Shown here piece after piece: positions 1-39,072 of a stretch of DNA of 64,000 nucleotides. The position numbers were made by a program, and so were the translations under genes. The notes under the pieces were generated by a model that made no database searches, was not told where the DNA came from, and saw nothing but the letters and a program-made list of their open reading frames with translations. The stretch is from the NCBI RefSeq assembly GCF_023055435.1, contig NW_025963802.1:26784001-26848000 (forward strand), read 5' to 3'. The first letter of the stretch is position 1. Each line of letters opens with the position of its first letter. This stretch comes from Haliotis rufescens (taxonomy: Eukaryota).

Positions 1-94
1 CATGACTCTTACCCCAACATCCACGAGTATCTGTACTATCCATCACCCCATCTTCGCCACGCGTCGCCGTACCACTCTTCTTTGTTTCAGCCAT
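1..94 (-). CDS. 5' part of the duplicated BIR protein gene (runs off the window start)
   Basis: Identical to 5152-5245 (MAETKKSGTATRGEDGVMDSTDTRGCWGKSH). Confidence 0.85.
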   Translation of the reverse strand, partial: MAETKKSGTATRGEDGVMDSTDTRGCWGKSH

Positions 95-405
95 TCTTGA
101 TCATTTTATGTCAAATACACTGACCCACTCGAATCCACACTTGTTTTATAGGAGCAGAACCGGATCGAAAATGGCTGCTTCCTGGTTGGTCCAAAACGCA
201 ACGCACGGATTGGTTCGTTCCGGGGCCTGGTTCCCACCTCGGTTTTCTTAAACGACCCGACCCCTGTGTTTCTTTTCCATAGGAAATGGATTTTACCATG
301 GGAGAGAAAGCACAACTCGGCTCGGGTGCTGTCTTCTGATTGGTCGGTGCTGTCTTATGATTGGTCGACAACCCAGGCTTCGGATTGGTCCGATTTCGAT
401 CCTGT
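87..405. promoter_or_regulatory. Promoter cassette copy A (bidirectional BIR/pPolB), duplicate of copy C
   Basis: Multiple CCAAT boxes (GATTGG), TATAAAA on minus strand at ~144-150, identical to 5238-5556. Confidence 0.75.
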
Positions 406-483
406 TTTGGGGAAGGGTTATCCATCCATCAGACGTTCAGTCCCTCTTAGAGTACAGACGTTCATCAGATACGCATCGCTATC

Positions 484-3000
484 ATGACGAGCAACCCAAG
501 TACGCCCTATCGTTTGGAGAGGCAAGACATCACCCGCTCCAGACGATTAAGACCCGCTAACCATACCTATCGTTTGACTTTCAACCCAGACTACTTGGAC
601 ACCGTACCACCGGAACGCGTTCCCATGGAACTGCCAGTTTTATTTGACAGGGTCATCGATGACTTTTATGAACAGATGTCAGGCCAGAAGGGAGATCGTA
701 TTGGTCTAGGTATCGATCATCCCGCTTTGAACACCTCCATACGGATTCCCTTTCGTCGCTTTGAAGATCTCCATGGGCTCGATATTTTGCATGCCGTGGA
801 AAAAGTCCAACAGTCCAACAAAGACCTGAACATCGATGCCACCATGGTGGTGACTTTAGTACACGTCTCAGATCCCGACAGGCTAGGATCGGGCAGTGGC
901 GGTCATCAACTGAAACACGTGATTGGACTCGAAGCCTTTTTAACACGCAAACAGTGCATTGTACGGATCAACAACCAAGATCAATCCTGTTTGGCACGGG
1001 CCCTGGTGGTGGCACAACATTATGCCCAGAAACCCCTCCCTTTGACCCCAGAATGGACCGCCGAGCGAGTGAGACTGACGAGAACGAATCGCGTCGACGT
1101 TCAAGGCATACGGGCACGGGACTTGTTTCGACGCCTTGGCCTGTCTGAAGGCCCCTGTCAGGGCCTGGACGACCTCACACGCGTGGGACGCGCCTTGGTC
1201 CCCCTGAATTATCAACTGAAAGTCTACAGTCAAGAGGTGGACCAGAGACTGTTGTACAAGTGTGATGAGGCTCCACCCCACGCCACGGTGCTGCATCTAT
1301 ACCATCATGATCAGCACTACGATGTCATCACGTCCATGCCCGCTTTTTATGGCTCTAACCATTACTGCGAACGCTGCGACAAACGTTACGATCATCCCGA
1401 AAAACATCCCTGCACCAAGGAATACCGCTGTCACCGCTGCCTCCACTGTACCTATTGCAAGTCCCTGGAAGAGCACGGGATCCCTTGCTTGACATGTCAA
1501 CGTTGGTTCCCCAATCCATCGTGTTACACTCGACATCTCCAGTCACCGTCAGAGGGAAAACCCAGCGCCTGCCAATCGATTCACAGGTGCCCGACCTGTT
1601 TTCATCTGGTCCGCATCTTGGAGACCCCCATGGTTCACCACGAGTGCTTCGACGAAGACCATCCCTGCTTGGTGTGCCGAGAACCCATGACCCCAGACCA
1701 TCGCTGTTACATGACGCCTCTCCGTGAAGAAAACGAGGAGGAGGGGGAGGGGGAGGAGGGGGAGGGGGAAGAGGAAGCGGAGAAGGAGGGGGAAGAGGAA
1801 CAACATCACGTACGAGACAATGTACGATACGCCTTCTATGATTTTGAATGCATGCAAGACACGGGGGAACACATTTCAAATTTGTGCGTGGTGCAACTGG
1901 GATGTGGACGGTGCATCAGTGAAGTCAGCAAGGACTTGTGCGAACACTGTCCATGGAGAGAAGAAGGATATGGTCCCAGCCGTGAGATCGTGTTTCGAGG
2001 CCCCACCACGCGACATGATGTGTGTGTGTGGTTGACCACGTTGGCTGAAAAACCCAGGAAGAAGCCCCACCCAGAGGAAGAAGAGGGCAGCACACGCAAG
2101 GGGACAACAGACCGTCTGGGGAAAAAAAGAAAACGGGATGACACCCCCTCAAGAAAGTACGCTTCCAAACGTCAACGACATGCATCACCCCAGCAGGAGG
2201 CGGAGGAGGGGGAAGAGGGGGATGAGGAAGAGGCCATGGAAGTGGAGAAAACAAAGAAGCCAAAGAACAAGAACACCACTTGCCATACAGTCCCGAAGGA
2301 GGATCGCATTTATGTGATGGCCCACAATGCACGATCGTATGATTTACACTTAATCCTGAAGGGTCTGTCCCCCCTCCTGGTGACACTCCCCACCAAGATC
2401 CGACATGGCCAACACATTTTGCAGATGACCCTGGGACGGTTGTGTTTCGAAGACAGCTTAAATTTCATCCCTTACCCCCTGAAAGCCTTTCCCAAGAGCT
2501 TTGGGCTGAAAGAAATGAAGAAAGGGTACTTTCCGCACTTTTTCAATACGGGAGTCAACCAGACCTACAGAGGTCCCTATCCACCAGCCGTCACGTACGA
2601 TCCCGATGGCATGTCTCCCGCGGAACGCACCGCCTTCCTCCAGTGGCATACTCAATAAGTGCAAGAAGGAGCTTTGTTCGACTTACAAGGAGAACTTTTA
2701 GCTTACTGTCAGAGCGATGTGGACATTTTGAGACGGGGATGCGCCGACTTCCGACAGAACGCCATCCACTCGGTGGGCATGGATCCCTTTGTGGAAGTGA
2801 TGACAGCTGCTGCCTTCACCATGAAATCCTTTCGAAAACACGACCTGAAACCCAAAACCATCGCCATTCTTCCACCTCAAGGCTACCAACCCAAGAGAAA
2901 CTATTCCCAGGCCTGTATGCACTGGCTCCACTATCTGATGGAAACGGACCCCCATCTGCACCTCCAGCACGCCAGGAATGGAGGTGAACAAGAGTTCACG
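484..3000 (+). pseudogene. pPolB copy 1, 3'-truncated at the duplication junction, nonsense TAA at 2656-2658
   Basis: Same protein as copy 2 (ExoI FYDFEC, ExoII AHNARSYD, ExoIII YCQSDV). TAA here is AAA at 7807. Sequence switches to TIR at 3001. Confidence 0.92.
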
Positions 3001-3186
3001 ACAGGGTTGTTGTTGTGGTGTGGTTCTAAAAATAGAAATAGAAAAGGCGGTGGGGGTGAAGGGAGGGAGGGAGGGAAGGGTGGGGGGGAGGAGAGGAGGA
3101 GGAGGAGGCGGGGTGGGTTCACGGTGTGGTGGAGGGTGGGTTGGAGGGTCGTCAAAGCAAAGGAGGAAAAGCTGTCTTTCGGGAGA
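2999..3186 (-). repeat. Inner part of the left TIR
   Basis: Reverse complement of 14107-14293 (CGACAGGGTTGTTGTTGTGGTGTGGTTCTAAAAATAGAAATAG...AGCTGTCTTTCGGGAGA) with a few mismatches and indels in the G-rich tract. Confidence 0.92.
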
Positions 3187-3189
3187 TGT

Positions 3190-3516
3190 TCACATGCATG
3201 TGCATCCCATGGTGCAAAGGCACGGGTGGATTTTCATTTCCCGTCTGACAGGACACCTACTGGTGTGCGTTAACCGCCGCACGTAGGTGTCCTTGAGGAT
3301 GGTCTTACAGTACACACATTCGAAAGTACCATCCCGTGCCCTTGTGCCAAGGGCGTACACAGGTAAGCACCCTTGGCATTTACCGCATTGCCATGGAGGT
3401 AGCGATGGCAATGGCGGTACTTCTTCTTCTTTCTTCTCCAACTCCGAGCGACACCCTTTGCACAGTGGCAAAGGGTGCACCACTGAGGCGAGCTCCAGAT
3501 CCCAGTTTTCAGCCAT
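3190..3516 (-). CDS. Small Cys-rich, putative Zn-binding viral protein (108 aa)
   Basis: CKGC, CGKCQGC and CVYC motifs. ATG lies in the same context (CAAGAATGGCTGAAA) and at a similar distance from the cassette TATA as the BIR gene. Confidence 0.65.
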   Translation of the reverse strand: MAENWDLELASVVHPLPLCKGCRSELEKKEEEVPPLPSLPPWQCGKCQGCLPVYALGTRARDGTFECVYCKTILKDTYVRRLTHTSRCPVRREMKIHPCLCTMGCTCM

Positions 3517-3830
3517 TCTTGATTTTTCGAATAAATTTTACAAGTGACACTGACCCACTCGAATCCACTCTTGTTTTATAGGGGAGGCACTGACACCCTG
3601 CTTCCTGGTTGGTTCGCCAGGCCGCAGCTCCGATTGGTTCGTTCCGGGGCCTCGCCCGCACCTCGGTTTTCCAAAACGACCCGACCCCTGTGTTTCTTTT
3701 CCATAGGAAATGGATTTTAACATGGGAGAGAAAGCACAACCCCGGTTCGGCCAATCAGGGTCCCGCCTGGTCCGAGCGCCGCCTCTGATTGGTCGGCAAC
3801 CCAGGCTTCCGATTGGTCCGATTTCGATCC
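3508..3830 (-). promoter_or_regulatory. Promoter cassette copy B
   Basis: Homologous to copies A, C, D and E: CCAAT boxes, CCATTTCCTATGGAAAAGAAACACAGGG core, CTATAAAACAAG, TCAGT initiator-like motif. Confidence 0.75.
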
Positions 3831-4500
3831 GTTTTTTTCCTTGGGTAGCCTTGGTATTGTTTTAGGTAGACGGTCGTCTGAATGCTAAAGGAAAGGTGGA
3901 CCTTCATAGGTAGACATGAACGTGGGAATGCCTACGCGATGTACGTTGTGTCACTCCCATGCCAATCGGAGTGTCATGTGTGTATGTGTGAGTGTGGATG
4001 TCTTCAAACAGACGTTGACGTTGATGCATAGAATAGCGTGTTGTCAAGCAAAACGTGGTGTCCTGTGTGTGTGTGTGTGTGTGTGACTACAACCATGGGT
4101 GTCGTATGGAGATGAATAGAGAAAGATCGATACACCTGCGTGACGTTTGCACACGTCATGGACTTCGTGTCGCGATGTGAACGTCATGTACTTTGTGTGT
4201 TGCCATGCAAACGTTGTGTCATGTGTGTGTGTGTTTTCAAATTATTATTTTTATTATTATTATTATTATTGAAGGATACCGAGGTGTTGACATCCGTGTA
4301 AGTCGACAGACGTACTGTGACACGTGTTTTCATGCACACGTGATGTTTGACGTGGTGTACTACGTGTCTCTATTGATCTATTGATATATATCTATGTATT
4401 GTATTTTTAGACGTGTGCCTCCAAGAGGTCTAGGGGGGAGGGTGTGGGTTCTTTGTTTTTTTTTGAGGGGTGGGGTTTAGCAAAGCAAAGGAGGAAAGTT

Positions 4501-4541
4501 GTCTTTTGGGTGAGATGGGTGGCCCTGAAAAGGGCCGTTTT
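4501..4541 (-). terminator. Replication-dependent histone-type 3' stem-loop plus HDE-like element
   Basis: Minus strand reads CAAAAC-GGCCCT TTTC AGGGCC-ACCCA-TCTCA-CCCAAAAGACAAC. This matches the metazoan histone stem-loop (6-bp stem, TTTC loop, A-rich 5' flank, ACCCA 3' flank), followed by a purine-rich AAAAGA about 8 nt after the expected cleavage site. Confidence 0.8.
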
Positions 4542-4825
4542 GGGGAAGAAAAACTTTTCTGCTGCTGCTGTCCAAGAAGAACGATCATGTCCAAGCTTCA
4601 TGACAAGACAAGGATCGTCGAAGCGGTACTTGTAACCATCTGGGTATGTCATCGGGGTGCCCACCGTGGCACCACTTGTGGGTCCAACAAAGAAAAGCTT
4701 GTTGGAAACAGGAAGCGGAAACAGACTGAACCAACCACAACAACAACAGCAGTAGACAAACGGGAACTTGAACGGGAACTTGAATGGGAACTTGAACAGG
4801 AACGCAGGACACGGGAAACGTCCTC

Positions 4826-5245
4826 CTAGGCAGCCGGCTGCGCTACGTCATTCGTGTACCTCTGTTTCTGGTGTTTCAACAGGCCGGTGAGCTTGAGGTA
4901 ATCGCAGTCTGGGGACCACTTGTGATGTGCCCCCCAAGGATCGTCGTGGGGTGCCCATTGTCTCAGCCGCAACCCACATTTGAAACAGCACACACCATCG
5001 GCCATCTGAGTGTAGACAAACCCCGCATGGGCCATCTCTTCAGCAGTCTGATACATTTGCGTTGGCCACGCCTCAAACGAAGCGAGCCTTCTTTCAAAGC
5101 GTAGATAATAGTGCGATGGCGTTTGACTGAGCAGTGACACCGCATCCTCGGCATGACTCTTACCCCAACATCCACGAGTATCTGTACTATCCATCACCCC
5201 ATCTTCGCCACGCGTCGCCGTACCACTCTTCTTTGTTTCAGCCAT
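4826..5245 (-). CDS. Single-BIR-domain IAP-like protein 1 (139 aa)
   Basis: RLASFEAWP...MAHAGFVY...DGVCCFKC...LRQWAPHDDPWGAHHKWSPDC fits the BIR consensus with CxxC-H-C ligands; no RING. Confidence 0.92.
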   Translation of the reverse strand: MAETKKSGTATRGEDGVMDSTDTRGCWGKSHAEDAVSLLSQTPSHYYLRFERRLASFEAWPTQMYQTAEEMAHAGFVYTQMADGVCCFKCGLRLRQWAPHDDPWGAHHKWSPDCDYLKLTGLLKHQKQRYTNDVAQPAA

Positions 5246-5556
5246 TCTTGATCATTTTATGTCAAATACACTGACCCACTCGAATCCACACTTGTTTTAT
5301 AGGAGCAGAACCGGATCGAAAATGGCTGCTTCCTGGTTGGTCCAAAACGCAACGCACGGATTGGTTCGTTCCGGGGCCTGGTTCCCACCTCGGTTTTCTT
5401 AAACGACCCGACCCCTGTGTTTCTTTTCCATAGGAAATGGATTTTACCATGGGAGAGAAAGCACAACTCGGCTCGGGTGCTGTCTTCTGATTGGTCGGTG
5501 CTGTCTTATGATTGGTCGACAACCCAGGCTTCGGATTGGTCCGATTTCGATCCTGT
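5238..5556. promoter_or_regulatory. Promoter cassette copy C, between divergent BIR1 and pPolB genes
   Basis: CCAAT boxes, TATAAAA (minus, ~5295-5301), TCAGT initiator-like motif; the only intergenic DNA between two divergent ORFs. Confidence 0.78.
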
Positions 5557-5634
5557 TTTGGGGAAGGGTTATCCATCCATCAGACGTTCAGTCCCTCTTA
5601 GAGTACAGACGTTCATCAGATACGCATCGCTATC

Positions 5635-8600
5635 ATGACGAGCAACCCAAGTACGCCCTATCGTTTGGAGAGGCAAGACATCACCCGCTCCAGACGATTA
5701 AGACCCGCTAACCATACCTATCGTTTGACTTTCAACCCAGACTACTTGGACACCGTACCACCGGAACGCGTTCCCATGGAACTGCCAGTTTTATTTGACA
5801 GGGTCATCGATGACTTTTATGAACAGATGTCAGGCCAGAAGGGAGATCGTATTGGTCTAGGTATCGATCATCCCGCTTTGAACACCTCCATACGGATTCC
5901 CTTTCGTCGCTTTGAAGATCTCCATGGGCTCGATATTTTGCATGCCGTGGAAAAAGTCCAACAGTCCAACAAAGACCTGAACATCGATGCCACCATGGTG
6001 GTGACTTTAGTACACGTCTCAGATCCCGACAGGCTAGGATCGGGCAGTGGCGGTCATCAACTGAAACACGTGATTGGACTCGAAGCCTTTTTAACACGCA
6101 AACAGTGCATTGTACGGATCAACAACCAAGATCAATCCTGTTTGGCACGGGCCCTGGTGGTGGCACAACATTATGCCCAGAAACCCCTCCCTTTGACCCC
6201 AGAATGGACCGCCGAGCGAGTGAGACTGACGAGAACGAATCGCGTCGACGTTCAAGGCATACGGGCACGGGACTTGTTTCGACGCCTTGGCCTGTCTGAA
6301 GGCCCCTGTCAGGGCCTGGACGACCTCGCACGCGTGGGACGCGCCTTGGTCCCCCTGAATTATCAACTGAAAGTCTACAGTCAAGAGGTGGACCAGAGAC
6401 TGTTGTACAAGTGTGATGAGGCTCCACCCCACGCCACGGTGCTGCATCTATACCATCATGATCAGCACTACGATGTCATCACGTCCATGCCCGCTTTTTA
6501 TGGCTCTAACCATTACTGCGAACGCTGCGACAAACGTTACGATCATCCCGAAAAACATCCCTGCACCAAGGAATACCGCTGTCACCGCTGCCTCCACTGT
6601 ACCTATTGCAAGTCCCTGGAAGAGCACGGGATCCCTTGCTTGACATGTCAACGTTGGTTCCCCAATCCATCGTGTTACACTTGACATCTCCAGTCACCGT
6701 CAGAGGGAAAACCCAGCGCCTGCCAATCGATTCACAGGTGCCCGACCTGTTTTCATCTGGTCCGCATCTTGGAGACCCCCATGGTTCACCACGAGTGCTT
6801 CGACGAAGACCATCCCTGCTTGGTGTGCCGAGAACCCATGACCCCAGACCATCGCTGTTACATGACGCCTCTCCGTGAAGAAAACGAGGAGGAGGGGGAA
6901 GGGGAGGAGGGGGAGGGGGAAGAGGAAGCGGAGAAGGAGGGGGAAGAGGAACAACATCACGTACGAGACAATGTACGATACGCCTTCTATGATTTTGAAT
7001 GCATGCAAGACACGGGGGAACACATTCCAAATTTGTGCGTGGTGCAACTGGGATGTGGACGGTGCATCAGTGAAGTCAGCAAGGACTTGTGCGAACACTG
7101 TCCATGGAGAGAAGAAGGATATGGTCCCAGCCGTGAGATCGTGTTTCGAGGCCCCACCACGCGACATGATGTGTGTGTGTGGTTGACCACGTTGGCTGAA
7201 AAACCCAGGAAGAAGCCCCACCCAGAGGAAGAAGAGGGCAGCACACGCAAGGGGACAACAGACCGTCTGGGGAAAAAAAGAAAACGGGATGACACCCCCT
7301 CAAGAAAGTACGCTTCCAAACGTCATCGACATGCATCACCCCAGCAGGAGGCGGAGGAGGGGGAAGAGGGGGATGAGGAAGAGGCCATGGAAGTGGAGAA
7401 AACAAAGAAGCCAAAGAACAAGAACACCACTTGCCATACAGTCCCGAAGGAGGATCGCATTTATGTGATGGCCCACAATGCACGATCGTATGATTTACAC
7501 TTAATCCTGAAGGGTCTGTCCCCCCTCCTGGTGACACTCCCCACCAAGATCCGACATGGCCAACACATTTTGCAGATGACCCTGGGACGGTTGTGTTTCG
7601 AAGACAGCTTAAATTTCATCCCTTACCCCCTGAAAGCCTTTCCCAAGAGCTTTGGGCTGAAAGAAATGAAGAAAGGGTACTTTCCGCACTTTTTCAATAC
7701 GGGAGTCAACCAGACCTACAGAGGTCCCTATCCACCAGCCGTCACGTACGATCCCGATGGCATGTCTCCCGCGGAACGCACCGCCTTCCTCCAGTGGCAT
7801 ACTCAAAAAGTGCAAGAAGGAGCTTTGTTCGACTTACAAGGAGAACTTTTAGCTTACTGTCAGAGTGATGTGGACATTTTGAGACGGGGATGCGCCGACT
7901 TCCGACAGAACGCCATCCACTCGGTGGGCATGGATCCCTTTGTGGAAGTGATGACAGCTGCTGCCTTCACCATGAAATCCTTTCGAAAACACGACCTGAA
8001 ACCCAAAACCATCGCCATTCTTCCACCTCAAGGCTACCAACCCAAGAGAAACTATTCCCAGGCCTGTATGCACTGGCTCCACTATCTGATGGAAACGGAC
8101 CCCCATCTGCACCTCCAGCACGCCAGGAATGGAGGTGAACAAGAGTTCACGTGTGGAGAGGGCCACCATCGGTACAGCGTGGATGGCTACGATCCAGCGA
8201 CAGGCACCATCTACGAGTTCCTGGGCTGTTTCTGGCATGGGTGCCAGACCTGTCACAAGACCCAACGTGGAGAACCACATCCCGTCCTTGGCACGTCGTT
8301 GGGAGCCCGTTACACCGACACCCGCTACCGCTTGAGTCTGCTGAGTCAACACCCTGAGGTGAAACGGATCTTCACCCTGTGGGAGCACGAGTTTACGAAA
8401 ATGCAACGGGAGGACTCCGCTCTGCGTGCTTTCTTGCAGGGACCCCGCTGTATCCACGTCCCCGGGCCGCTCAACCCTCGCGACGCTTTCTATGGAGGAC
8501 GCACCAATGCGACGCGATTATGCTACGAAGCCCAAGATGGTGAAACCATCAAGTACATCGATATTTGTTCCCTTTACCCCTACATTTGTAAGACCGGAGC

Positions 8601-9865
8601 GTTTCCCACGGGACACCCGACCCTTCTCCATCAACCCCCTGTGGACACGTTGTTTGAACTGAAAGGCCTGATCCAATGCCGTGTCCTACCCCCGAAACGC
8701 CTCTACCACCCGCTACTGCCTTACAGATCGGGTGGCAAACTGCTCTGTCCTTTGTGCCGTACGTGTGCCGATGCCCGGTCAGACTCCCCCTGCCAGCACA
8801 CGGACGAAGAGAGGTCATGGGTCGGGACGTACGCCACCGTAGAACTTCAGGAAGCCGTGAAGAAGTATGACTACCGGGTGCTTCAGATCTACGACGTTTG
8901 GCATTTTGACACTTTTGCACAGCATGACCCCGACACCCAGCAAGTGGGACTCTTTGACACTTACATCGATCGGCATTTCAAGGAGAAGCTCGAAGCCAGC
9001 GGATACCCCGAGGGATGTACGGATCACGATGCTTACATCCAGGAAATCTATGACAAAGAAGGCATTGGGTTGGACAAGGATCGCATCGAAAAAAATCCAG
9101 GACGTCGCACGATTGCCAAGATGCAACTGAATTCGCTCTGGGGCAAGTTTGGACAACGGGTAGACTACAGTCAGAACGTCTATATCAGCGATCCTGTACA
9201 GTACTTTGCCTTGTGGAGGGATGACCGCAATACCATCGAGGATGTGACCGTTGTCAACGAACACATGGTGGAAGTGACCTATACCCATCGGAAAGAATAC
9301 CAAACCCCTCATTCTCATTTCAACGTCGCCATCGCCGCTTGGGTAGCCCAAGCACGTCTCAAGCTGTACGAGACCCTTGCCCTGGTGGGCCGCAGGGTCT
9401 TGTATTTTGACACGGACACCGTCATTTACATTCATCGACCCCACGATGAAAATCCAGAGCTGGGCCATTCGTTGGGTGAGTTTACGGATGAACTGGACGG
9501 AAACACCATCAAGACGTTTGTGTCGGGAGGTCCCAAAAACTATGGCTACGAGTTAATGAACCCCAGACCCGATGGAACGCGCACGACCTGCAAAGTGCGA
9601 GGGTTCACTTTGAATTACCGAAACCAACACCATCTCAACTTTGACACCATGAAAGGACTGATACTGGGACAACGGCCTGGGAAAGACGAGGAGAAAATCA
9701 GTTTGCATTACCCTCATCAGATCATTCGAAAAGGACCTCGTCACGAAAACGCAATTGTGACCCGACCCTCCCGAAAAGACTATCGTACCGTGTACGACAA
9801 GCGACGAAACCACAGGGCTGCCTGTAGATACGCTCCCCTTTGGGTACAGAGACGACTTTCACTAA
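5635..9865 (+). pseudogene. Protein-primed family B DNA polymerase (Polinton-type pPolB) with N-terminal terminal-protein-like/vOTU-like region, Zn fingers and VSR-like nuclease insert; nonsense at 6682 and +1 frameshift near 9807
   Basis: ExoI/II/III, motif A YIDICSLYP, motif B KMQLNSLWGKFGQ, motif C YFDTDT, KNYGY. DQSCLARAL...HYDVI is vOTU-like. VDGYD...YEFLGCFWHGC is VSR-like. CGA>TGA at 6682 (CGA intact at 1531). The conserved C-terminus DTLPFGY continues in another frame to TAA 9863-9865. Confidence 0.95.
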
Positions 9866-9920
9866 AAACAATTTCATAACAGCGGATCGAAACCGAATCG
9901 ACATGGACCCCTACAGAAAA

Positions 9921-10152
9921 AAACGGATCGAAATCTGACCAATCCGAAGCCTGGGTTGTCGACCAATCAGAGGCCGCACTCGGACCAGGGTGGGCTCTGA
10001 TTGGTCGAACCGAGGTTGTGCTTTCTCTCTCACGCTACAAGACTAACCCTATGGAAAAGAAACACAAGGGTCGGTCCATTTTGGAAAACCAAGGTGAAAG
10101 TCCGACACCGGAACGGACCAATCAGAAAGCAGGACCTCCGTGGCTTTTAATA
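9921..10152 (+). promoter_or_regulatory. Promoter cassette copy D (more diverged)
   Basis: GGATCGAAATCTGACCAATCCGAAGCCTGGGTTGTCGACCAATCAG...CCTATGGAAAAGAAACACAAGGGTCGG, homologous to the other copies. Confidence 0.72.
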
Positions 10153-10356
10153 CGACCGACGCTCTCCGGTCCTCACTTTTCACTGAACGGACCAAGCAAC
10201 AACATCGTCCCTCTGATTGATGTTCCTCACGTTGTGTTGGCTGTTGGCGTTTTATCTGGAAGAAACACGTGTTTGGAGAGAGTACCATCAAGTGTTGACA
10301 CACATCCGTGAAGACTTGGAAAGAAAAAACAACGAACAGAACATCCGAACAACATC

Positions 10357-11501
10357 ATGTCGAAACGGTTGAATGACAAGACACGAAGCGACATGAGTGG
10401 CCAAGGAAGCAGTGGAGATGGGAACGGTGACATGACTGCTGAACTGTGGGGTGAAGTGTACGACTTGCTGTGTTTAAAGATGAAGACCGACGACGCGTAC
10501 GCCAAGTTACGTGCGAAGGGCGACAACCTGATGTGCGAACAGATACGTTCAAAGATGAGGAAGCTGACTGAACCCGAGAAAGGCACATCGAAGAGGACGA
10601 TTAAGAAGATCCAGAAGAAAAAGACGAGCAAACCCACAGCCATGGTGACCCCAACAGCAGCAGCAACACCCACCACCACCACCATCACCACCACAGCGCC
10701 AGTCCCCACCACCACCACCACAGCAGCCACAGCAACCACTGCAACAGCGACAACAGACACCGAAACAATGGGGACATCCTTTTTGAAACCTGCAACACCT
10801 GCAGCGTCTGCAAAAAGACGATCACGGAAGAAATTATCTCTGAAGATCTCTCCTCAAGAACAACTGTAAGTACCCTGCTCTTCTTTGTCTCAGTCGTTCT
10901 TGATGTGATGTTGATGTTGATGATGATGATGATGATGATAGCGATGTTGATGATGACTATACCTATGCCTATGATGAATGGACTCTGTCCTTTGATTGAC
11001 AGGACCCCTGATGTCAGTTCAGCCCAGACCGTGCTAGAACAGTGGTGGGAACAAACCCCTCGGGAGCCCACCTATTCACCGAATGCCCCTGTGACGATGG
11101 CGACGGGTGACCTCGATGATCATGAAGCGCTCAAGCTGGCCACTCTCCCATCCATGGATCTGGACACGCTCCCCCTGCTTGAGGCTTCATGGTCACCAGC
11201 ATCACCGGAAGAGGTTCATGTCTACTCCTCAGGTACGCCCATGGTTTGCGACGATGATGATGATGATGACAATGTTGACCTGGATCCTTATGGAGAAGCT
11301 CAACTCACTCCCCTACAACGCGAATGTCGTGTTCGCCGACACAACAACATGTTAAGGTACATCAGTTGCAACAGCGGGCAAGTGATGTGCCATGCCTGTG
11401 GTCTGGAGCTCATAGACTATACTTGTAGTATGTTGACCTATGACAGCATAGTGACACATGATGACATGCCTATCGCATCTGAGGATCACATCTTATGGTG
11501 A
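10357..11501 (+). CDS. Spliced viral protein of unknown function (~335 aa; exons 10357-10865 and 11003-11501): basic, Thr-rich and acidic regions, C-terminal Cys/His cluster
   Basis: CT|GTAAGT donor at 10866 and TTGACAG| acceptor at 11002 join ORFs 10357 and 10905 in frame (QEQ-L-TPDV). The intron removes the (GAT)n microsatellite. Lies downstream of cassette D; ATTAAA at 11804. Confidence 0.65.
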
Positions 11502-12265
11502 TCCTCCTCTTCACCCGAAGAACTTTACAACACGTAAGCTGCAACCGTGATCAAGTGATGTGTCATGTCTGTTTCAGGGAGGCCATAGACTGTACGTGTT
11601 GAACGGATGGACCTCTCACATGGTTGAGGGAGGACCACCTCTTATGGGATTGAAGACAGAAGAGCTTGAAGATGGAAGAGGAAAACGTTGTCGCGTTATT
11701 GATGTTGTTGTTGTTGTTGTTGTTGTAGGGACATGCAAAGCACTCCCTCCTCCATTGACTTTTCGTATTTCCATTGTATCTGGTTGTGATTGGTTTTTTC
11801 ATGATTAAACAGTGATTGATTGAACTGACTCTTTGTGTCTTGATTGACCTCAACTCCAATAGAGTGCCGAACCGAGGGTAGAAGTTGAGTTGAGATGTCG
11901 TTTACGTCGTCTGTCCGTCTGTCTGTCTGTCTGTATGTGCGTCTGTCATGTCCGTGCACACCAAAGTGTAAAATTAAAATAAAAATAGATAAAAGAGAAA
12001 GGCTATGCTTGAAAGATCAGCTGCCTGGTGTCAGTCATTCCAGTACGCATCGATCATCCCCACACCCACCGTGTGCCATGTCATGTCATGGATCATGTCA
12101 TGCCTCATGCCGTGTGTCCGTCAACCCAAACACAGGATGACGTCACGTCATGAGGTGGAGGAGGTGGAAGCTAAGGTCATGACCTTCCGTTGAAGGGAGT
12201 AGGGTGGAGAGTTTCATAAAAGCAGGCGAACCCTCAGACCTTCTTTCAGTGAAGTCACAGTCATC

Positions 12266-12796
12266 ATGGAGCAAAGACGTTCTATGAATGCCATGTCATC
12301 CTCCCGAGATGTCGTCACCGATTCCGAGTGGGTGTGTGAAAAGGCGAGAGAACCAGAAGCGAGAAAACGTCCACTCTTGATGGACGACACACTCTTGATG
12401 GACGACAGGTGTCGACTCGGTGACGTTCTGGAGAGACCTTTTCCTTCTTACACCTTGTGTCATCCTTCTCATCCCCACTATGATTCATTTCAAGAACGTC
12501 TGAGGTCTTTTCAAACGTGGCCTAAACAGATGACCCAGACCCCTTATGACATGGCCATGGCTGGCTATTTCTATCCAGGACGAGGGGACTGTGTGACCTG
12601 TTATTGCTGCGGTGTGGCACTCCGCCAATTGGAAGCCACAGACCAACCCTGGAAAGAACATCTGAAGCACGACAAAGTCCCCTGCGAATACTTGTGCGTG
12701 TTTTGTCCTGATGGAGAAGTGAACGAAAAATACAGACGTTTGGTGTCCCAAGAAGCACGGAAGAGAAGAGTCGAGTGTCTTGTACACCCCAAGTGA
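12266..12796 (+). CDS. Single-BIR-domain IAP-like protein 2 (176 aa)
   Basis: ERLRSFQTWP...MAMAGYFY...DCVTCYCC...DQPWKEHLKH...C; upstream CATAAAAG and TCAGT; ATTAAA at 12949. Confidence 0.9.
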   Translation: MEQRRSMNAMSSSRDVVTDSEWVCEKAREPEARKRPLLMDDTLLMDDRCRLGDVLERPFPSYTLCHPSHPHYDSFQERLRSFQTWPKQMTQTPYDMAMAGYFYPGRGDCVTCYCCGVALRQLEATDQPWKEHLKHDKVPCEYLCVFCPDGEVNEKYRRLVSQEARKRRVECLVHPK

Positions 12797-13013
12797 CAAC
12801 GTTTTTTTGTTTTTTTTCAAAGTGGTCAGACGTTCCTACCCTCGTGGTCACCCCTCGTGGTCACCCCTCGTGTTCACAAAAATCACAGGGATGACCCCCC
12901 TCATCCTGTGACTTTTGTTTTGTTGTGTTGGTTCATGTGATCAGGGGGATTAAATTTGTTTTAAAAACTCATAGTCGTGTTATGTTGTCTGTAGGATGAA
13001 GAAAAAACAAAAC

Positions 13014-13310
13014 AGGATCGAAATGCACACCCCGATAAAAACCGGATCGAAATCGGACCAATCGGAAGCCTGGGTAGTCGACCAATCAGAGACCGCGCTC
13101 GGACCAGGCGGGGCTCTGATTGGCCGAACCGGGGTTGTGCTTTCTCTCCCATGGTAAAATCCATTTCCTATGGAAAAGAAACACAGGGGTCGGTCCGTTT
13201 TGGAAAACCGAGGTGCAGGCCGGGCCCCGGAACGAACCAATCGGGGGAGCTGCCTGGGGAACCAATCAGGAAGCAGGGTGTCAGTGCCTCTCCTATAAAA
13301 ACAAAACAAG
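13014..13310 (+). promoter_or_regulatory. Promoter cassette copy E
   Basis: Near-inverse copy of B; CCAAT boxes and CTCCTATAAAAAC just upstream of ATG 13340. Confidence 0.78.
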
Positions 13311-13339
13311 AGCGAAGCCACTCACACACACTGCATTCT

Positions 13340-13969
13340 ATGAAACCCATCATGTCAGCTCGATACAGTTGTATGAAGTGCCAGACCGACAGTCACAGTT
13401 ACCTGTACTGCCCTGAAGTGACATGCCTCCAGTGTCACGATCAAGGTCACCGTCACTATGTCTGTCCGAAGCTGAGCAGTCTAGAGATGCAGGAGAAGCA
13501 GAACCTGGCCCCCTGTTACAACTGTGAAGCCCTGGGTCATTTCGCTGCAGATTGCCCAGAACCCCGTCGAAAGAAGACTCCCCATCGCCTGGACCGCTGT
13601 TACAACTGTCGAGCCCTGGGCCATTTCGCTGCAGATTGCCCAGAACCCAGTCGAAAGAAAACGTTAGCAACACCGTCCACGTCGACACCCGTGGCATCCG
13701 TGGCAACCGTGACCCCCGTGACCCCCGTGACCCCCGTGGCACCCGTGACACATGTCCTTCATCTCATCGAAGACATGCATGTCGATGTCCTCGACCTAAA
13801 AGAATGCCTCACACAACTCCGTGTAGGCATCACACCTCGTGTAGAGAAAAGAAAACGGAACAGAAGCCCCTCACGAAAACACGTTTCAAAGCGTCGACGA
13901 CACCTTCCGTCCGAGGATGAGATGGAAGTAGAGGATGGAGAAGTTAGATCATCTGAACAAAGTGACTAA
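13340..13969 (+). CDS. CCHC zinc-knuckle protein (4 knuckles) with bipartite NLS-like tail
   Basis: CMKCQTDSHSYLYC, CLQCHDQGHRHYVC, CYNCEALGHFAADC, CYNCRALGHFAADC. The start is placed after the TATA box, not at 13151, which lies inside the promoter cassette. Confidence 0.85.
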   Translation: MKPIMSARYSCMKCQTDSHSYLYCPEVTCLQCHDQGHRHYVCPKLSSLEMQEKQNLAPCYNCEALGHFAADCPEPRRKKTPHRLDRCYNCRALGHFAADCPEPSRKKTLATPSTSTPVASVATVTPVTPVTPVAPVTHVLHLIEDMHVDVLDLKECLTQLRVGITPRVEKRKRNRSPSRKHVSKRRRHLPSEDEMEVEDGEVRSSEQSD

Positions 13970-14106
13970 CGCATGGGCCATGCTGCCCCACTGTTTTTAC
14001 CCGTTTCCCATCGTTTGCAGTTTTTCCAGTGTTCCAGTGTTCCAGTGTTCCTGCCGTTTCCTGTCGTTTCCAGTTTCCAGTTTGTTTTCCAACGGCCCTT
14101 TTCATC

Positions 14107-14665
14107 TCTCCCGAAAGACAGCTTTTCCTCCTTTGCTTTGACGACGCTCCAATCCACCCTCCACCACACCGTGAACCCACCCCTCCTCCTCCTCCTCCCT
14201 CCCCTCCCTCCCTCCCCCCTCCCTCCCTCCCTTCACCCCCACCGCCTTTTCTATTTCTATTTTTAGAACCACACCACAACAACAACCCTGTCGATCTTGT
14301 TCACCTTGTACGTGCGCTTCTCCGGGTTTTTCCCCATTCATCTCCTCCCCGGAAACGGAGGCGACGCCCTCTTGGAGGCGCACGCCACCGGACACGGAGG
14401 CGACGCCATCTTGAAGGCGCACGCCACCGGACACGGAGGCGACGCCATCTTGAAGGCGCGCGCCACCGGACACGGATGCGACGCCATCTTGGATGCGCGC
14501 GCCACCGGAAACGGATGGGACGCCATCTTGGATGCGCACGCAAGTCCCATCATGCCCCGCGCGCATGCGCAGGTCACGTGACCGGATGTGACGTCACAGA
14601 GGTCACGTGATCCTCTCGACCAATCAGAAGCCAGGAGCGGTTCTCGGGTAATGTACACAACTACT
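14107..14665 (+). repeat. Right TIR (~560 bp)
   Basis: Inverted match to 2999-3186; ends ACTACT; contains E-boxes (CACGTG), a CRE (TGACGTCA) and a CCAAT box near the tip. Confidence 0.88.
14351..14541 (+). repeat. Five 39-bp tandem repeats inside the TIR, four with a YY1-type site
   Basis: Unit GGACACGGAGGCGACGCCATCTTGAAGGCGCACGCCACC; CGCCATCTTG matches the YY1 consensus. Confidence 0.85.
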
Positions 14666-33300: not shown

Positions 33301-36300
33301 GGTTTATGTTGCGTCCAAGTACACTGCTCACCATCTAGTAACCATATGGGTTTATGTTGCGTCTCAGTACACAGCTCACCATCTAGTAACAATATGGGTT
33401 ATGTTGCGTCTCAGTACACAGCTCAGCTCGCGGCTGGTTCACCTTCTTCTCGGAACCCATGTCGTGGAACGAAGCCTTCACCGTGTGTTCAGACCGAGGG
33501 GAACGTCTACTCCACATCAACAATGCTGATAAATACAGCGATGTGACGGACATGATAAACGAGCTCACTGATCAAGGTTATTTGTAAGTATAGTATTTGT
33601 CCATGGGCGACGTAGTTTAACTTGTGAGTTTTTGAAACATGTCTGTTTCATTTTTTCTTGCTTAGCATATACCCATGAAAAAACTTGAATTTTGTTATTT
33701 TATCTTTGGAAATGGGTTTCCAGAATTAAAATGGGACGTGTTCTGTATTATGTTGTATTTTACTTGACAGATTATAAACAAATTATTACAATCCCACTGG
33801 AATCGTCAGAGAGTCTTAAATCTCATATATCCTTGCTTATTCTATCAAGGACTAGTTTTACCTGTGTGATTTAATTAGCTGTAACAGTGTGGAGCTATTC
33901 ATTCACATCAACTATATGTGTAATACATGTTATCCTTACCGCCATGTAGGTCACATCTGGTAGTTATGCCAGGAGTCGGTGATCGCTGGTTCAAATCCAA
34001 GATTCAATTTGATCATGGGCCGTGGTTATACCCAGAGTGGTAAACGCCTGAGACTGNNNNNNNNNNNNNNNNNNNNNNNNNNNNNNNNNNNNNNNNNNNN
34101 NNNNNNNNNNNNNNNNNNNNNNNNNNNNNNNNNNNNNNNNNNNNNNNNNNNNNNNNNNNNNNNNNNNNNNNNNNNNNNNNNNNNNNNNNNNNNNNNNNNN
34201 NNNNNNNNNNNNNNNNNNNNNCTTGACATAACTGAAATACTGTTCGAAATACGTTCATCCATGACTCACTTATCTACGTTTTCTCCATGCGATTACACCC
34301 TTTTTCATTTCTATGCAGCAACTATTGTATGTGTGTTGTTTCACCCTTGTCTCTTTCAGGACGGGTCCCCTGTGGTTAGGTGCCTATAGAACATCAGGAT
34401 CCACTCCGACCACCATGTGGACAGACTGTAGCCTCGCTCAACTCACGCCCTGGCAAAATGCGACTTATAGCGCAGACAAGTTGTGTGCAGAGGTGCATGG
34501 TGATACCTTCGCATGGCAAAAGTGTAACGTGCTTCATCAGTTCATCTGTGAAGGGCATATTGGTAAGTTAGGTACTGACCAAAACACTACGCGACGTACG
34601 AGGGAATCACAGTGTCTTATTCTGTGTGTTCCTCATTTGGGTGGTATTGTTGTTCCAGGTCAATGTCGCAAAACATCTTTGTCCTTTATATGTGTGTTCC
34701 TCATCAGGATGCTATTGTTGTCCCAGGTTGATGTCGGTATGGTCCTTTATATGTGTGTTCCTCATCGGGATGCTATTGTTCTCCCAAGTCAATGTCTGTA
34801 TAAATGTCCTTTATATGTGTGTTCCTCATCAGGATGCTATTGTTGTCCCAGGTTGATGTCGGTATGGTCCTTTATATGTGTGTTCCTCATCGGGATGCTA
34901 TTGTTCTCCCAAGTCAATGTCTGTATAAATGTCCTTTATATGTGTGTTCCTCATCAGGATGCTATTGTTGTCCCAGGTTAATGTCGGTATGGTCCTTTAT
35001 ATGTGTGTTCCTCATCGGGATGCTATTGTTCTCCCAAGTCAATGTCTGTATAAATGTCCTTTATATGTGTGTTCCTCATCGGGATGCTATTGTTCTCCCA
35101 AGTCAATGTCTGTATAAATGTCCTTTATATGTGTGTTCCTCATCGGGATGCTATTGTTCTCCCAAGTCAATGTCTGTATAAATGTTCTATATATGTGTGT
35201 TCCTCATCGGGATGCTATTGTTGTCCCAGGTTGATGTCGGTATGGTCCTTTATATTTGTGTTCCTCATCGGGATGCTATTGTTCTCCCAGGTCAATGTCT
35301 GTATAAATGTCCTTTATATGTGTGTTCCTCATCGGGATGCTATTGTTCTCCCAGGTTGATGTCGGTATGGTCCTTTATATGTGTGTTCCTCATCGGGATG
35401 TTATTGTTCTCCCAGGTCAATGTCTGTATAAATGTCCTTTATATGTGTGTTCCTCATCGGGATGCTATTGTTCTCCCAAGTCAATGTCTGTATAAATGTC
35501 CTTTATATGTGTGTTCCTCATCGGGATGCTATTGTTGTCCCAGGTTGATGTCGGTATGGTCCTTTATATGTGTGTTCCTCATCGGGATGTTATTGTTCTC
35601 CCAGGTCAATGTCTGTATAAATGTCCTTTATATGTGTGTTCCTCATCGGGATGCTATTGTTCTCCCAAGTCAATGTCTGTATAAATGTCCTTTATATGTG
35701 TGTTCCTCATCGGGATGCTATTGTTCTCCCAAGTCAATGTCTGTATAAATGTCCTTTATATGTGTGTTCCTCATCGGGATGCTATTGTTCTCCCAGGTTG
35801 ATGTCGGTATGGTCCTTTATATGTGTGTTCCTCATCGGGATGCTATTGTTCTCCCAAGTCAATGTCTGTATAAATGTCCTTTATATGTGTGTTCCTCATC
35901 GGGATGCTATTGTTCTCCCAAGTCAATGTCTGTATAAATGTCCTTTATATTTGTGTTCCTCATCAGGATGCTATTGTTGTCCCAGGTTGATGTCGGTATG
36001 GTCCTTTATATGTGTGTTCCTCATCGGGATGCTATTGTTCTCCCAAGTCAATGTCTGTATAAATGTCCTTTATATGTGTGTTCCTCATCGGGATGCTATT
36101 GTTCTCCCAAGTCAATGTCGGTATAAATGTTCTATATATGTGTGTTCCTCAAGGATATGCTATTGTTCTCCCAAGTCAATGTCGGTATAAATGTTCTAAA
36201 TATGTGTGTTCCTCAAAGAGATGCTATTGTTCTCCCAAGTCAGTGTCGGTATAAATGTTCTATATATGTGTGTTCCTCAAGGATATGCTATTGTTCTCCC

Positions 36301-39072
36301 AAGTCAATGTCGGTATAAATGTTCTATATATGTGTGTTCCTCAAGGATATGCTATTGTTCTCCCAAGTCAATGTCGGTATAAATGTTCTATATATGTGTG
36401 TTCCTCAAAGAGATGCTATTGTTCTCCCAAGTCAGTGTCGGTATAAATGTTCTATATATGTGTGTTCCTCATCGGGATGCTATTGTTGTCCCAGATCAAT
36501 GTCGGTATGAGAAAACCAGTGGTCATGACCTGGCGTCCGGCAAAGGTCACTCCGGGACGAGGGTCAGCAGTGCCGTATGTGGCAGCTACTGTATGACGTA
36601 TGAATTGCACACTGCGCACTTTGACCTCATCTGTGCAGCCTACAGCTTTAACAACGTGACACGCGAGTGCTTCGTTAACATGAAGCCGAGCCTGTACGAA
36701 CCTGACAAGTCTCCTTCCTTCGCAGCCAACACGGACATGGAGGTGAACGTCAAACGATGCTTCAGTTGTAAGTAGATGCCCACTTCTTGAACCCTGCGGG
36801 TGTCGTCATAGAACATTGTAAAACACGGGCGGTAGTTCATGATTTCATCTCATTTTCTAACTTTATTGACAAGATCTATTGGCATTGAACTAACTCAGTC
36901 TTCAGGTCATTTTTTCTTTGTGCAGAGAATTATGCTTGTGTTATGAATTGCGTTTCTGTAGATATTGCGTAAACGTCATTTGTTATTAGAAACTGAACTT
37001 TAATTTCAAATCCTGGTAAGAATATCATTTCCGTGTGAAAATGTAACCAGCGCCAGTAATNNNNNNNNNNNNNNNNNNNNNNNNNNNNNNNNNNNNNNNN
37101 NNNNNNNNNNNNNNNNNNNNNNNNNNNNNNNNNNNNNNNNNNNNNNNNNNNNNNNNNNNNNNNNNNNNNNNNNNNNNNNNNNNNNNNNNNNNNNNNNNNN
37201 NNNNNNNNNNNNNNNNNNNNNNNNNNNNNNNNNNNNNNNNNNNNNNNNNNNNNNNNNNNNNNNNNNNNGGAGTTACATTATTCTACATTCCAAGACAATT
37301 CAGTCTACTATTTTAGAGGAAATGGTGTGTGGACGGGTACTGCAGGGGATCACCAAGGTTACTGGGTCCCGTATACAGGTGGGTACCCACCCACCACAAG
37401 AAGATACCCTCGTTTCCCGTACAAGATCGGCGTGTAGCGAAACGTAGCCAGCAAAGTTTAATCTTTAAGAAACATGACTGACCATGACGGCGGCATAAAA
37501 CTGTTTAGGTAATCTGGAATGCAAAGCGAGATTTCACTCTGCTGGGTACCTTTCGCTAAATTTGGCAACTCTGCTGGGAACGTGGGTGCCTTCTTGTGTC
37601 AGCTGGGTGCCCCCTGTACTCGGGTTTCCGTACTACCGGTCCTTACAACGACCTCTTTCACTGATTGCTGTGGATCCTTGTTTTATTGTAATCACGTGAT
37701 GAAGTCACCTAAAGTTGTGCTATCTCACTTTTAACAGTGAACATTTCCTCATCATCCGCTGGTCGGCCCGATTCTCGATTGAAGCCAGAAAATCCATGCA
37801 CTAGTGACCAGGTGTTCTTCTCTGCCACCTCTACCACCATCTTCAGCAACGTCACGCCATTGACGCACAGCACTGCGGTACAGTCGTCAACGACCAATGC
37901 CCATAGTAGTATGTTGGACACGCCTAGTTTCGACTTCAGCGCCATGGCGACGGTTGGAGTGAGTGACCACATTCCCACTGCTGTCTCTGTGGTCGGAACC
38001 ACCCTCCAAGGATTGATCACTGTACTTAATGTAGATAATAGTAATGTAAGGTCACACGTATCAGAATCTTCAGACATTTCCCCGAGCTTCAACCTTGTGT
38101 TTCCAAGTGACAACTATGCAAGCACACTCTACTCAAGCACATCGCACATATGGATGACGAGCAGCAGATCCCCACCGCTGTCGTTCCCGCCTCCCAATAC
38201 CGCAACTGAACACGTAACTGGCACGCTTTCCCTATCAGAAAAAATGACACAGGGAACCACTAAATTACCTCCCTTGTCGCAGGGGGACCCCAAACTGATC
38301 AGTTCAGCTTACTCTCAACAAGATGTTATCACACACGGCCTAGTGGCAACGACTACTACATCCGGGGCGTTCAGCGATGTCCCAAACAATCCATCAGGTA
38401 AGCTTTACTGTTGCATTCATGAAAAATACCAACTGTTATATGGAAGTTGAATATTAACGAATACATATTTGACTTTAAATGCTGATAGAGGCACGGTTGC
38501 GCAGCAATTCTATTTGCAGAGTTGGGTCTCTCAGCTCAGCCAACATCAGCTGAACGTGAATCCAAATCTTAGATTTACTCTGAATATGATTATTGGTTTG
38601 TTAGTACCATGCTTCGGTTTACCAAAGTGGTAAATGTCTTTGACATGTGTCTCTTCTGGCTTCCTTTCCATATCGAGCTGACTGACTCAAATGCCGATTT
38701 CCCAAAATTTTGTGTTGACATTTTCCAGGCACCATGTTGTGTACATGCCACTGTCGGCCGTCTAACATAACAGAGGAGCGCCTACGGTCAATCAAGCAAC
38801 ACCTAGCTGTGGATAGAGCCAACCTCTCGACCACCAGGCGCCGGATGATGTCTGCCCCTGACCACCGGAAGTCTGTGACAGCCGTGGGGAGTATCAGCGT
38901 GGGTGTGCTCTGTGTCCTGCTGCTGGTGCTCCTGGCGCTTGACGTGGATCAGGTATTACGACTGGTTACCTGGTGTCACTACGCCACCCCAGGTACTGAA
39001 ACCGGGACATGTGTGGGTAGTGGCCAGACAGCAAGTTCACCAGTCAGAGAGGGGAGGGAACATATGCTGTGA
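30312..39072 (+). CDS. Host type I membrane protein: signal peptide, C-type lectin domain, PAN/apple domain, Ser/Thr stalk, TM. Exons 30312-30351, 33415-33583, 34360-34562, 36495-36767, 37738-38397, 38729-39072
   Basis: All junctions are GT-AG and phase-compatible. MSWNEAFTVC...LWLGAY...W..KC...QFICE is a CTLD; C..YC...CAAYSFN...C is PAN/apple; the last exon has a hydrophobic ISVGVLCVLLLVLLAL. Two introns contain N gaps. Confidence 0.85.
30412..33430 (+). repeat. 48-bp intronic minisatellite (~60 copies)
   Basis: Unit ATGGGTTTATGTTGCGTCTCAGTACACAGCTCACCATCTAGTATCAAT. Confidence 0.97.
34625..36510 (+). repeat. 61/64-bp intronic minisatellite (alternating variants)
   Basis: Unit TATATGTGTGTTCCTCATCGGGATGCTATTGTT(G/C)TCCCA(G/A)GT... 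Confidence 0.97.

Follow-up and report, generated by a model that had tools for sequence, protein, structure and literature searches.

In a 64-kb window of the genome of the abalone Haliotis rufescens (64,000 nt of contig NW_025963802.1, the whole stretch analysed here), a promoter cassette recurs in front of different genes of a Maverick-derived mobile element. Our analysis indicates that this cassette, together with a 3' module found behind three of the genes, is probably a histone-gene-like transcription unit with a non-histone open reading frame (ORF), copied within the element while the ORF was exchanged. The support for this reading is entirely in silico and consists of the repeats, the geometry of their motifs, a likeness to histone H3 promoters, a histone-type stem-loop, the mosaic structure of the copies and variants among other family members. 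The element occupies the first 14.7 kb of the window and carries a pPolB gene (PF03175), two single-BIR genes and a zinc-knuckle gene. Its cassettes are lettered A to D, with B' for a duplicate of B that the earlier note on this DNA counted as A:

87..405, minus strand: cassette B', duplicate of B in a 3-kb duplicated, truncated segment
3507-3835, minus strand: cassette A, with head motif, twin CCAAT 24 bp apart, inverted CCAAT, AAGAAACACA core, CCAAT and TATA at 3580; predicted transcription start (+1) at 3551
5236..5559, minus strand: cassette B, flanked by the divergent BIR1 and pPolB genes, with the TTCGATCC motif near both ends and TATA at 5301; predicted +1 at 5272
9884..10152, plus strand: cassette C, without TATAAAA; its likeness to the other copies stops just past the fourth CCAAT
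13015..13300, plus strand: cassette D, with TATA at 13294; predicted +1 near 13324

All copies lie within the element and are oriented outward, and the earlier description of four diverged copies (74-94% identical) plus one recent duplicate was confirmed. The head motif occurs exactly five times in the 64 kb, even with three mismatches allowed (0 of 100 shuffles reached five; mean 0.01), and the 49 kb of flanking sequence contain no cassette copy. Across a core of about 200 nt, identity was highest between A and D (93.6%), followed by C-D (84.7%), A-B (83.2%), B-D (82.3%), A-C (82.2%) and B-C (74.4%). TATAAAA is present in A, B, B' and D and missing from C, and a common start context is found in A, B and B'; both features agree with the earlier description. 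Spacing to the ATG is conserved, with the twin CCAAT (24 bp) at about -280 to -300, the AAGAAACACA core at -163 to -182, a CCAAT box at -102 to -121 and, in A, B and D, TATA at -46 to -64 followed 29-30 nt downstream by TCA. An 18-nt core occurs five times in the window, always before position 15000; its four matches in viral contigs showed no likeness beyond 19-21 nt and were taken as chance. The proposal that a cassette precedes nearly every gene was overstated. Cassettes front four of seven accessory ORFs (ORF-A, BIR1, ORF49/ORF170, which are two ORFs behind one cassette, and zf-CCHC) and one also backs onto pPolB, with no TATAAAA facing pPolB in cassette B; ORF197 and BIR2 have no cassette, and BIR2 is preceded by TGACGTCA and CATAAAA.

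Histone promoters for comparison came from a stem-loop pattern scan of genome contigs, which yielded 53 loci, many of them animal histone clusters in prokaryote bins; 29 distinct promoters (6 H3, 23 other) were kept from 133. The GTDB bins behind L091-L143, G001 and G002 hold animal histone clusters as well as Maverick polymerases, which amounts to host contamination. All four cassettes gave their best alignment with one and the same promoter, that of the H3 gene at locus L096, over 50-110 nt and with scores of 61, 59, 59 and 51 (shuffles: mean 20-21, maximum 30-36; 0 of 300 reached the cassette score for each copy). Head motif and twin CCAAT stand in the same order and spacing in the cassette and in the L096 promoter, and the second-best match of A and C was again an H3 promoter (L115). 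Control windows scored at most 43 (1474 windows from related Mavericks) and at most 30 (148 host-flank windows) against the L096 promoter. CCAAT twins 23-25 bp apart were found in 3 of 6 H3 promoters compared with 0 of 23 other histone promoters. In the best of 24 comparisons, 20 of 24 nt agreed between the start of BIR1 and that of the H1 gene at L108 (0 of 300 shuffles), a likeness confined to the first six codons. Of the 29 histone promoters, 4 contain the motif TTC(A/G)ATCC (shuffles: mean 0.42, maximum 4), which carries little weight because it was picked after the data had been seen. The AAGAAACACA core, found in all five copies and twice in the remaining 49 kb, is absent from the two H1 promoters compared; it is a candidate H1 box. 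The existence of an element of that name is documented (PMC12240685, PMC6027317). The link to histone promoters is thus supported more strongly, by the H3-type head and the stem-loop described below, than it had been from the sequence alone. The spacing of the twin CCAAT is 24 bp and not the 31-bp peak of human c-Fos-class promoters; in human data, two NF-Y need a spacing of at least 24 bp, and this value is characteristic of LTR12 (PMC4982600).

The 3' module is present in three copies, behind ORF-A, BIR1 and zf-CCHC. Only the purine-rich part remains behind ORF-A, without a stem-loop; the other two copies are:

4481..4555, minus strand: BIR1 3' module, with an intact histone 3' stem-loop (RF00032, 4496-4541) and a purine-rich element 13 nt past the stem
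14079..14140, plus strand: zf-CCHC 3' module, with the 5' arm and loop of the stem-loop kept, the 3' arm lost and the purine-rich element present

The BIR1 stem-loop matched Rfam family RF00032 with 36.8 bits (gathering threshold 34; E 8.4e-08) and was the sole match above gathering in 12.1 kb. The downstream element, AAAAGA, 13 nt past the stem, resembles that of the histone genes compared. Stem-loop and downstream element are hallmarks of replication-dependent histone mRNAs (PMC5011920), with a bivalve example in PMC6210712. No AATAAA or ATTAAA was found within 700 nt past the stops of ORF-A, pPolB, ORF170 and zf-CCHC (for ORF-A, only 190 of the 700 nt belong to the element), and poly(A) hexamers follow both cassette-less genes, 153-472 nt past the stop. 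With its H3-type head and the histone stem-loop in its 3' module, the unit supports the promoter-cargo-3' architecture proposed earlier. A match to Xist_exon1 was rejected (23 bits; gathering 50), and a small-RNA run, of which 10 of 21.6 million reads mapped to the window, yielded no start or end sites. Two further runs that are possibly RNA (X15 and X18) covered the element with the evenness of DNA and were set aside as a source on expression.

We examined recurrence in 85 related pPolB loci (for the metagenome scan, the best 80 of 512), dereplicated to 66 clusters. RF00032 matches above gathering were found in two clusters, L057 (two matches) and L087. In L057 a near-identical stem-loop copy lies 19 nt past the stop of a 124-aa non-histone ORF with the head motif at -175 upstream; in L087 the stem-loop lies about 40 nt past a non-histone stop, and L037 has a sub-threshold copy 11 nt past a stop. 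Five bins, a biased set chosen because non-histone stem-loops were present, gave 13 matches above the cut-off, with 4 behind histones, 5 within 30 nt of non-histone ORFs and 4 behind no ORF of 80 aa; the non-histone ORFs encode MADF-domain, Helitron helicase, RING and unknown proteins. Stem-loops 9-26 nt past stops were seen at L176:1484(-), L111/L150, L130/L160, L155, L173:181(-), L149 and L175, and belong to a Helitron helicase, MADF-domain genes, a RING gene in a compact virus-like contig and unknown ORFs. A promoter of at least 200 bp reused before different genes was found in none of 28 dereplicated relatives of at least 7 kb; shorter reused blocks occur in L047 (48 bp) and L075 (164-196 bp, about 74%). 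The 32-nt head pattern had no match in metagenome contigs, and pPolB as a single query had none in viral contigs.

Several side observations concern the same loci. At L057:5170-5807, three near-identical 3' ends with stem-loops are followed by three tRNA genes, and 3' ends 2 and 3 are preceded by splice-acceptor-like starts, so that they are possible alternative last exons. Transfer RNA genes lie in or next to the Maverick loci L037, L057, L086 and L087. A Rep/Cap-like small circular virus contig carries a histone-like stem-loop behind a capsid-like ORF (L090:1235-1256(-)), which is below Rfam gathering and, as a single match in the collection, could be chance. Two candidates were dropped: a 200-bp repeat in L057 considered as a shared 3' module, which appears coding, and P0136, a repetitive false match.

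A number of findings weigh against a histone-type unit. Start sites are predicted only, and 3' ends and expression are inferred from sequence. The histone promoters compared come from animal contigs in prokaryote bins and not from abalone. The H3 likeness is limited to the first 50-100 nt of the cassette, and its middle gave no significant match to three H1 promoters. Cassette C and pPolB both lack a TATA, and pPolB is also without a stem-loop. Only one of three 3' modules in the window has an intact stem-loop, and this lies 289 nt past the BIR1 stop, whereas among 24 histone genes the distance is 21-56 nt for 22 and 114-118 nt for the other 2; other family members have 62-104 nt less in the BIR1 3' untranslated region (UTR). 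An AATAAA follows 571 nt past the BIR1 stop, the window copy of the element is defective, and 64 of 66 related clusters, many of them short fragments, have no RF00032 match at gathering. CCAAT twins 23-27 bp apart are also common in Mavericks (20 pairs in 11 of 66 loci; shuffles maximum 12), including their terminal inverted repeats (TIRs), and convergence on NF-Y is therefore possible.

The last point leads to the main rival, in which the TIR is the source of the cassette:

2999-3186, minus strand: left TIR, inner part only, 93-95% identical to 14107-14306; 3153-3186 contains the purine-rich downstream element without stem-loop
14107..14665, plus strand: right TIR, with 39-bp repeats, a CCAAT box at 14620 and the terminal ACTACT at 14660-14665

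According to this rival, which we consider unlikely, the cassette is an ordinary Maverick NF-Y/TATA promoter that arose from the twin-CCAAT block lying subterminally in the TIR and was copied along with the genes, its H3 likeness being convergence and the stem-loop incidental or a decaying relic. In the window, and likewise in 5 of the 66 related clusters (L032, L046, L064, L066 and L078; shuffle mean 0.66, maximum 3), a CCAAT box stands 40-41 bp before ACTACT, often as a 25-bp twin with flanks resembling the cassette head. Multi-CCAAT arrays also precede genes in L047, L083 and L026/L027, with promoter and gene duplicated together in L026, and two of three stem-loops in the window are damaged. 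However, alignment with the H3 promoter gives the TIR block a score of 22, compared with 51-61 for the cassettes; H3 promoters share with the cassettes the head motif that precedes the first CCAAT, and the TIR does not have it; and unrelated Mavericks also carry a stem-loop above threshold whose downstream element is correctly spaced. As an observation in its own right, the conserved CCAAT box within 14612-14665 is a candidate host-factor site of the Maverick origin. The TIR is motif-dense at 14349-14610, with putative YY1 (four repeats), NRF1, E-box (two), CRE and ETS sites. A host tandem repeat in the flank, at about 43250-43820, has a CCAAT box every 43 bp and is unrelated to the cassette.

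The borders of the copies and the structure of other family members bear on how the cassettes multiplied. The 5' border is common to the copies (within 6 nt in 6 of 6 pairs), and there are three different 3' end points. Cassette A is D-like upstream (93.6%), yet its UTR and first codons are as in B; the copies are therefore mosaics. A dedicated site-specific capture system, integron-like, would account for the sharp 5' border and for the different cargo behind promoters 92-94% identical, but 3' borders that differ pair by pair, the mosaic copies and the lack of any recombinase or integrase in the window make it very improbable. Gene capture itself, as suggested earlier, is supported in part, by cargo that differs behind near-identical promoters; the cargo may or may not derive from the host, and the tail of zf-CCHC is a piece of the element's own pPolB.

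Family variants were drawn from 15 of 166 joints and 18 of 1263 loose ends. At least six contigs lack C as a 364-nt block, with a joint skipping 9854-10217, and run from pPolB directly into the ORF49 region with no structural genes at the joint. At least one contig joins an A-type UTR to the BIR1 coding sequence, and at least one joins C to D (9994 to 13168). Under another species label, at least two contigs have a D-type core whose sequence differs from 13328, 3-4 nt past the predicted start. Three gene models from two Haliotis species (P0003, P0011 and P0134) contain translated cassette adjoining pPolB or BIR. The presence or absence of C as a block would also be expected of a miniature inverted-repeat transposable element (MITE) or solo long terminal repeat (LTR) inserted several times, and a 24-bp CCAAT twin is the signature of human LTR12 (PMC4982600). 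This alternative, which the earlier note had named as one that would overturn its proposal, is already largely refuted and we give it hardly any probability: the flank holds no copy, terminal inverted repeats of at least 7 bp are missing from A, C and D, the three 3' borders differ, and the TATA-to-ATG distance of only 46-64 nt leaves no room for R-U5. Summed depth in a DNA run, a rough measure and not a copy number, was 3.9-14.7 thousand for cassette bins, like that of pPolB (8-18 thousand) and 50-190 times below that of a flanking retrotransposon fragment (734 thousand).

The C-D joint has also to be considered in relation to an alternative that extends another earlier suggestion, namely that the cassettes act mainly as origins or enhancers resembling the baculovirus hrs and as recombination hot spots through which the capsid/integrase module was lost. 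In C (z -6.0) and D (z -2.8), a palindrome with CCAAT arms gives a good fold, and C lies just past pPolB, where L011, L014, L053 and L083 carry a run of genes that in L014 includes integrase and ATPase. However, no such palindrome folds in A or B (z -1.1 and -0.4), the internal copies are without the terminal repeat used in protein priming (PMC8097293), the C-D joint misses the register of an exact crossover by 55 nt, and members without C have no structural genes at that place. The origin function is thus unsupported, and the deletion of a structural module through cassette recombination is conjectural; we regard this alternative as improbable.

If the cassettes and 3' modules are histone-type units, the cassette would be an RNA polymerase II promoter built on the replication-dependent histone plan. 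A histone-like unit adjoining the TIR was then most probably duplicated in tandem (A, B) and inverted onto the other arm (A, D), after which recombination would have remodelled the copies, exchanging sequence. The points of ORF exchange appear to have varied: past codon 3-4 (A compared with B), just past TATA (A/B compared with D) and past the fourth CCAAT (C). Part of the zf-CCHC ORF derives from the element's own pPolB, and copy B also faces pPolB, as in a divergent histone pair; histone gene pairs commonly share a divergent promoter of 200-300 nt (PMC13525598). The anti-apoptotic BIR, other accessory proteins and perhaps pPolB would then probably be made via the host histone-gene machinery, either during S phase or in the oocyte and early embryo, with S-phase expression or oocyte storage as the presumed benefit; in zebrafish, an SLBP stores histone mRNA in oocytes (PMC6239174). 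Transcription from the cassette is very likely, and it is reasonably probable that BIR1 mRNA is processed at its 3' end through the stem-loop. For S-phase or germline timing the chances are about even, and descent from a captured host histone locus appears no more and no less probable than mimicry.

The element itself, judged from its genes and ends, is a defective Maverick/Polinton derivative, non-autonomous or decayed, and not an intact member. Its pPolB matches PF03175 (E 4e-34), with a reading frame interrupted in both window copies. The nearest proteins are pPolBs of Haliotis rufescens and H. cracherodii (at most 96% identity), and the family is dispersed, with clusters of 17 and 10 members spread over many contigs. 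Integrase, capsid, packaging ATPase and protease left no trace in the 64 kb (119 ORFs of 8 relatives, tblastn at E 1e-4): the integrase and capsid genes are scored as absent because none of these ORFs matches the window outside pPolB, and because there is no rve integrase the element is classed as Maverick-derived and non-autonomous or decayed. Regarding the (AGT)2//(ACT)2 ends of Mavericks, the right end has ACTACT, a Maverick terminal motif (PMC8097293), and on the left only the inner 190 bp or so of the TIR remain, fused to a truncated 3-kb duplicate of the BIR1-pPolB region. Thus the earlier statement that the cassettes point outward toward the TIRs holds for their orientation, with the left TIR reduced to its inner part. 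The gene model P0016 places the outer TIR repeat upstream of pPolB. Positions 1-3000 duplicate 5152-8151 (3000 nt, 7 differences, 99.8%) and carry cassette B' and their own premature stop; they meet the inner TIR near a common 12-nt stretch, which points to a recent tandem duplication or to an assembly of two haplotypes. The polymerase copy in this segment is:

484..3000, plus strand: truncated second pPolB copy, with an in-frame stop at 2656-2658, ending at about 3000 at the junction with the inner left TIR

The genes of the complete part of the element are:

3190..3516, minus strand: ORF-A, 108 aa; residues 40-105 form a small Cys/His domain with no Pfam family; 5 of 6 matches are credible homologs
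4826..5245, minus strand: BIR1, a single-BIR IAP-like protein of 139 aa with N-terminus MAETKK
5635..9879, plus strand: pPolB (PF03175), divergent from BIR1 across cassette B
10220..10369, plus strand: 49-codon candidate ORF (ORF49); its ATG lies at the same distance from the cassette C motifs, within 1 nt, as the zf-CCHC ATG from those of D
10357..10869, plus strand: ORF170, with no Pfam match
10908..11501, plus strand: ORF197, acidic with Cys pairs (oncoid-like by eye), without cassette; poly(A)-type hexamers 303 and 472 nt past the stop
12138..12250, plus strand: BIR2 promoter-like region with TGACGTCA, CATAAAA and TCAGT, distinct from the cassette
12266..12796, plus strand: BIR2, 41% identical to BIR1 across the domain; ATTAAA 153 nt past the stop
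13340..13969, plus strand: zf-CCHC ORF, 209 aa, with a stretch (13820-13960) similar to a basic segment in the pPolB of the element

The Cys/His domain of ORF-A belongs to an unnamed family otherwise known from unannotated contigs alone; ORF-A matched no viral-contig locus, and no cargo ORF matched any of the 85 Maverick loci. Near-length relatives of BIR1 gave 14 matches, all from Haliotis and 11 of them starting with MAE; longer relatives were absent at 1e-10 among 222 candidates, which is weak evidence. BIR and pPolB gene models have consecutive accession numbers in four pairs, on contigs of equal length, which shows many annotated abalone single-BIR genes to be, by their genomic neighbours, apparently element-borne. 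IAP and oncoid cargo is known in adintoviruses (PMC8502044). In one Haliotis gene model (P0130), the BIR of this element is joined to a C-type lectin domain, and the flank at 34265-38450 of the window contains lectin-like and Ser/Thr-rich exons; as modelled, P0130 and these flank exons are possible element-host chimeric transcripts.

More broadly, we tentatively suggest that Mavericks of marine invertebrates, and other mobile elements, make non-histone proteins from true histone-type mRNAs, with captured promoters, an SLBP/U7 cut and no poly(A). If so, IAP, oncoid and replication genes would be tied to S phase or to maternal stores and be invisible to poly(A) RNA-seq, and the abalone family would use a captured histone gene as a reusable chassis, with part of the single-BIR 'IAP expansion' as its cargo. 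Use of the stem-loop/U7 pathway counts as a hallmark of replication-dependent histone mRNAs (PMC5011920), and a mobile element with a histone promoter plus histone 3' end on non-histone cargo would be exploiting the host cell cycle in a new way. No report of CCAAT-array Maverick promoters or of histone stem-loops on mobile-element genes was found among the top-ranked literature matches, in which subscription journals and Repbase reports are thinly covered. In the Maverick papers examined (including PMC8502044 and PMC8097293), promoters and histone-type 3' ends are not described, and the timing of Maverick gene expression is essentially undescribed in the literature examined. A preprint on SLBP crosslinking and immunoprecipitation (10.64898/2026.08.17.745202) did not bear on invertebrate non-histone targets.

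Set beside known systems, the element resembles Maverick/Polinton elements and adintoviruses in its pPolB, a TIR ending in ACTACT and an accessory region with IAP and oncoid-like ORFs (PMC8502044, PMC8097293). Unlike them, it has no integrase, capsid, ATPase or protease and reuses a promoter of at least 200 bp. Dispersed repeats in the genome of a DNA virus, with an imperfect palindrome in every copy, characterize the baculovirus hrs; the cassettes are likewise dispersed repeats in a virus-like DNA genome, with an imperfect palindrome in two copies, but they are single oriented copies at a set distance from the ATG and the palindrome is missing from A and B. The cassette has no TIRs of its own, no fixed borders and no high copy number apart from its carrier, as a MITE would. 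With the multi-CCAAT promoter of LTR12/ERV9 it shares a 24-bp CCAAT twin on a selfish element (PMC4982600), but it has no LTR structure and is not dispersed alone. Compared with a replication-dependent histone unit, the ORFs of the window encode BIR, zinc-knuckle and unknown proteins in place of a histone, the location is a mobile element, about 190 extra bp separate head and TATA, and the stem-loop lies 289 nt from the stop and not near it. In common with such a unit are the H3-type head with twin CCAAT, a TATA, a short 5' UTR, an apparently intronless ORF, the 16-nt 3' stem-loop of BIR1 with its purine-rich downstream element, and a divergent gene pair on a promoter of 200-300 nt (PMC5011920, PMC13525598, PMC6210712).

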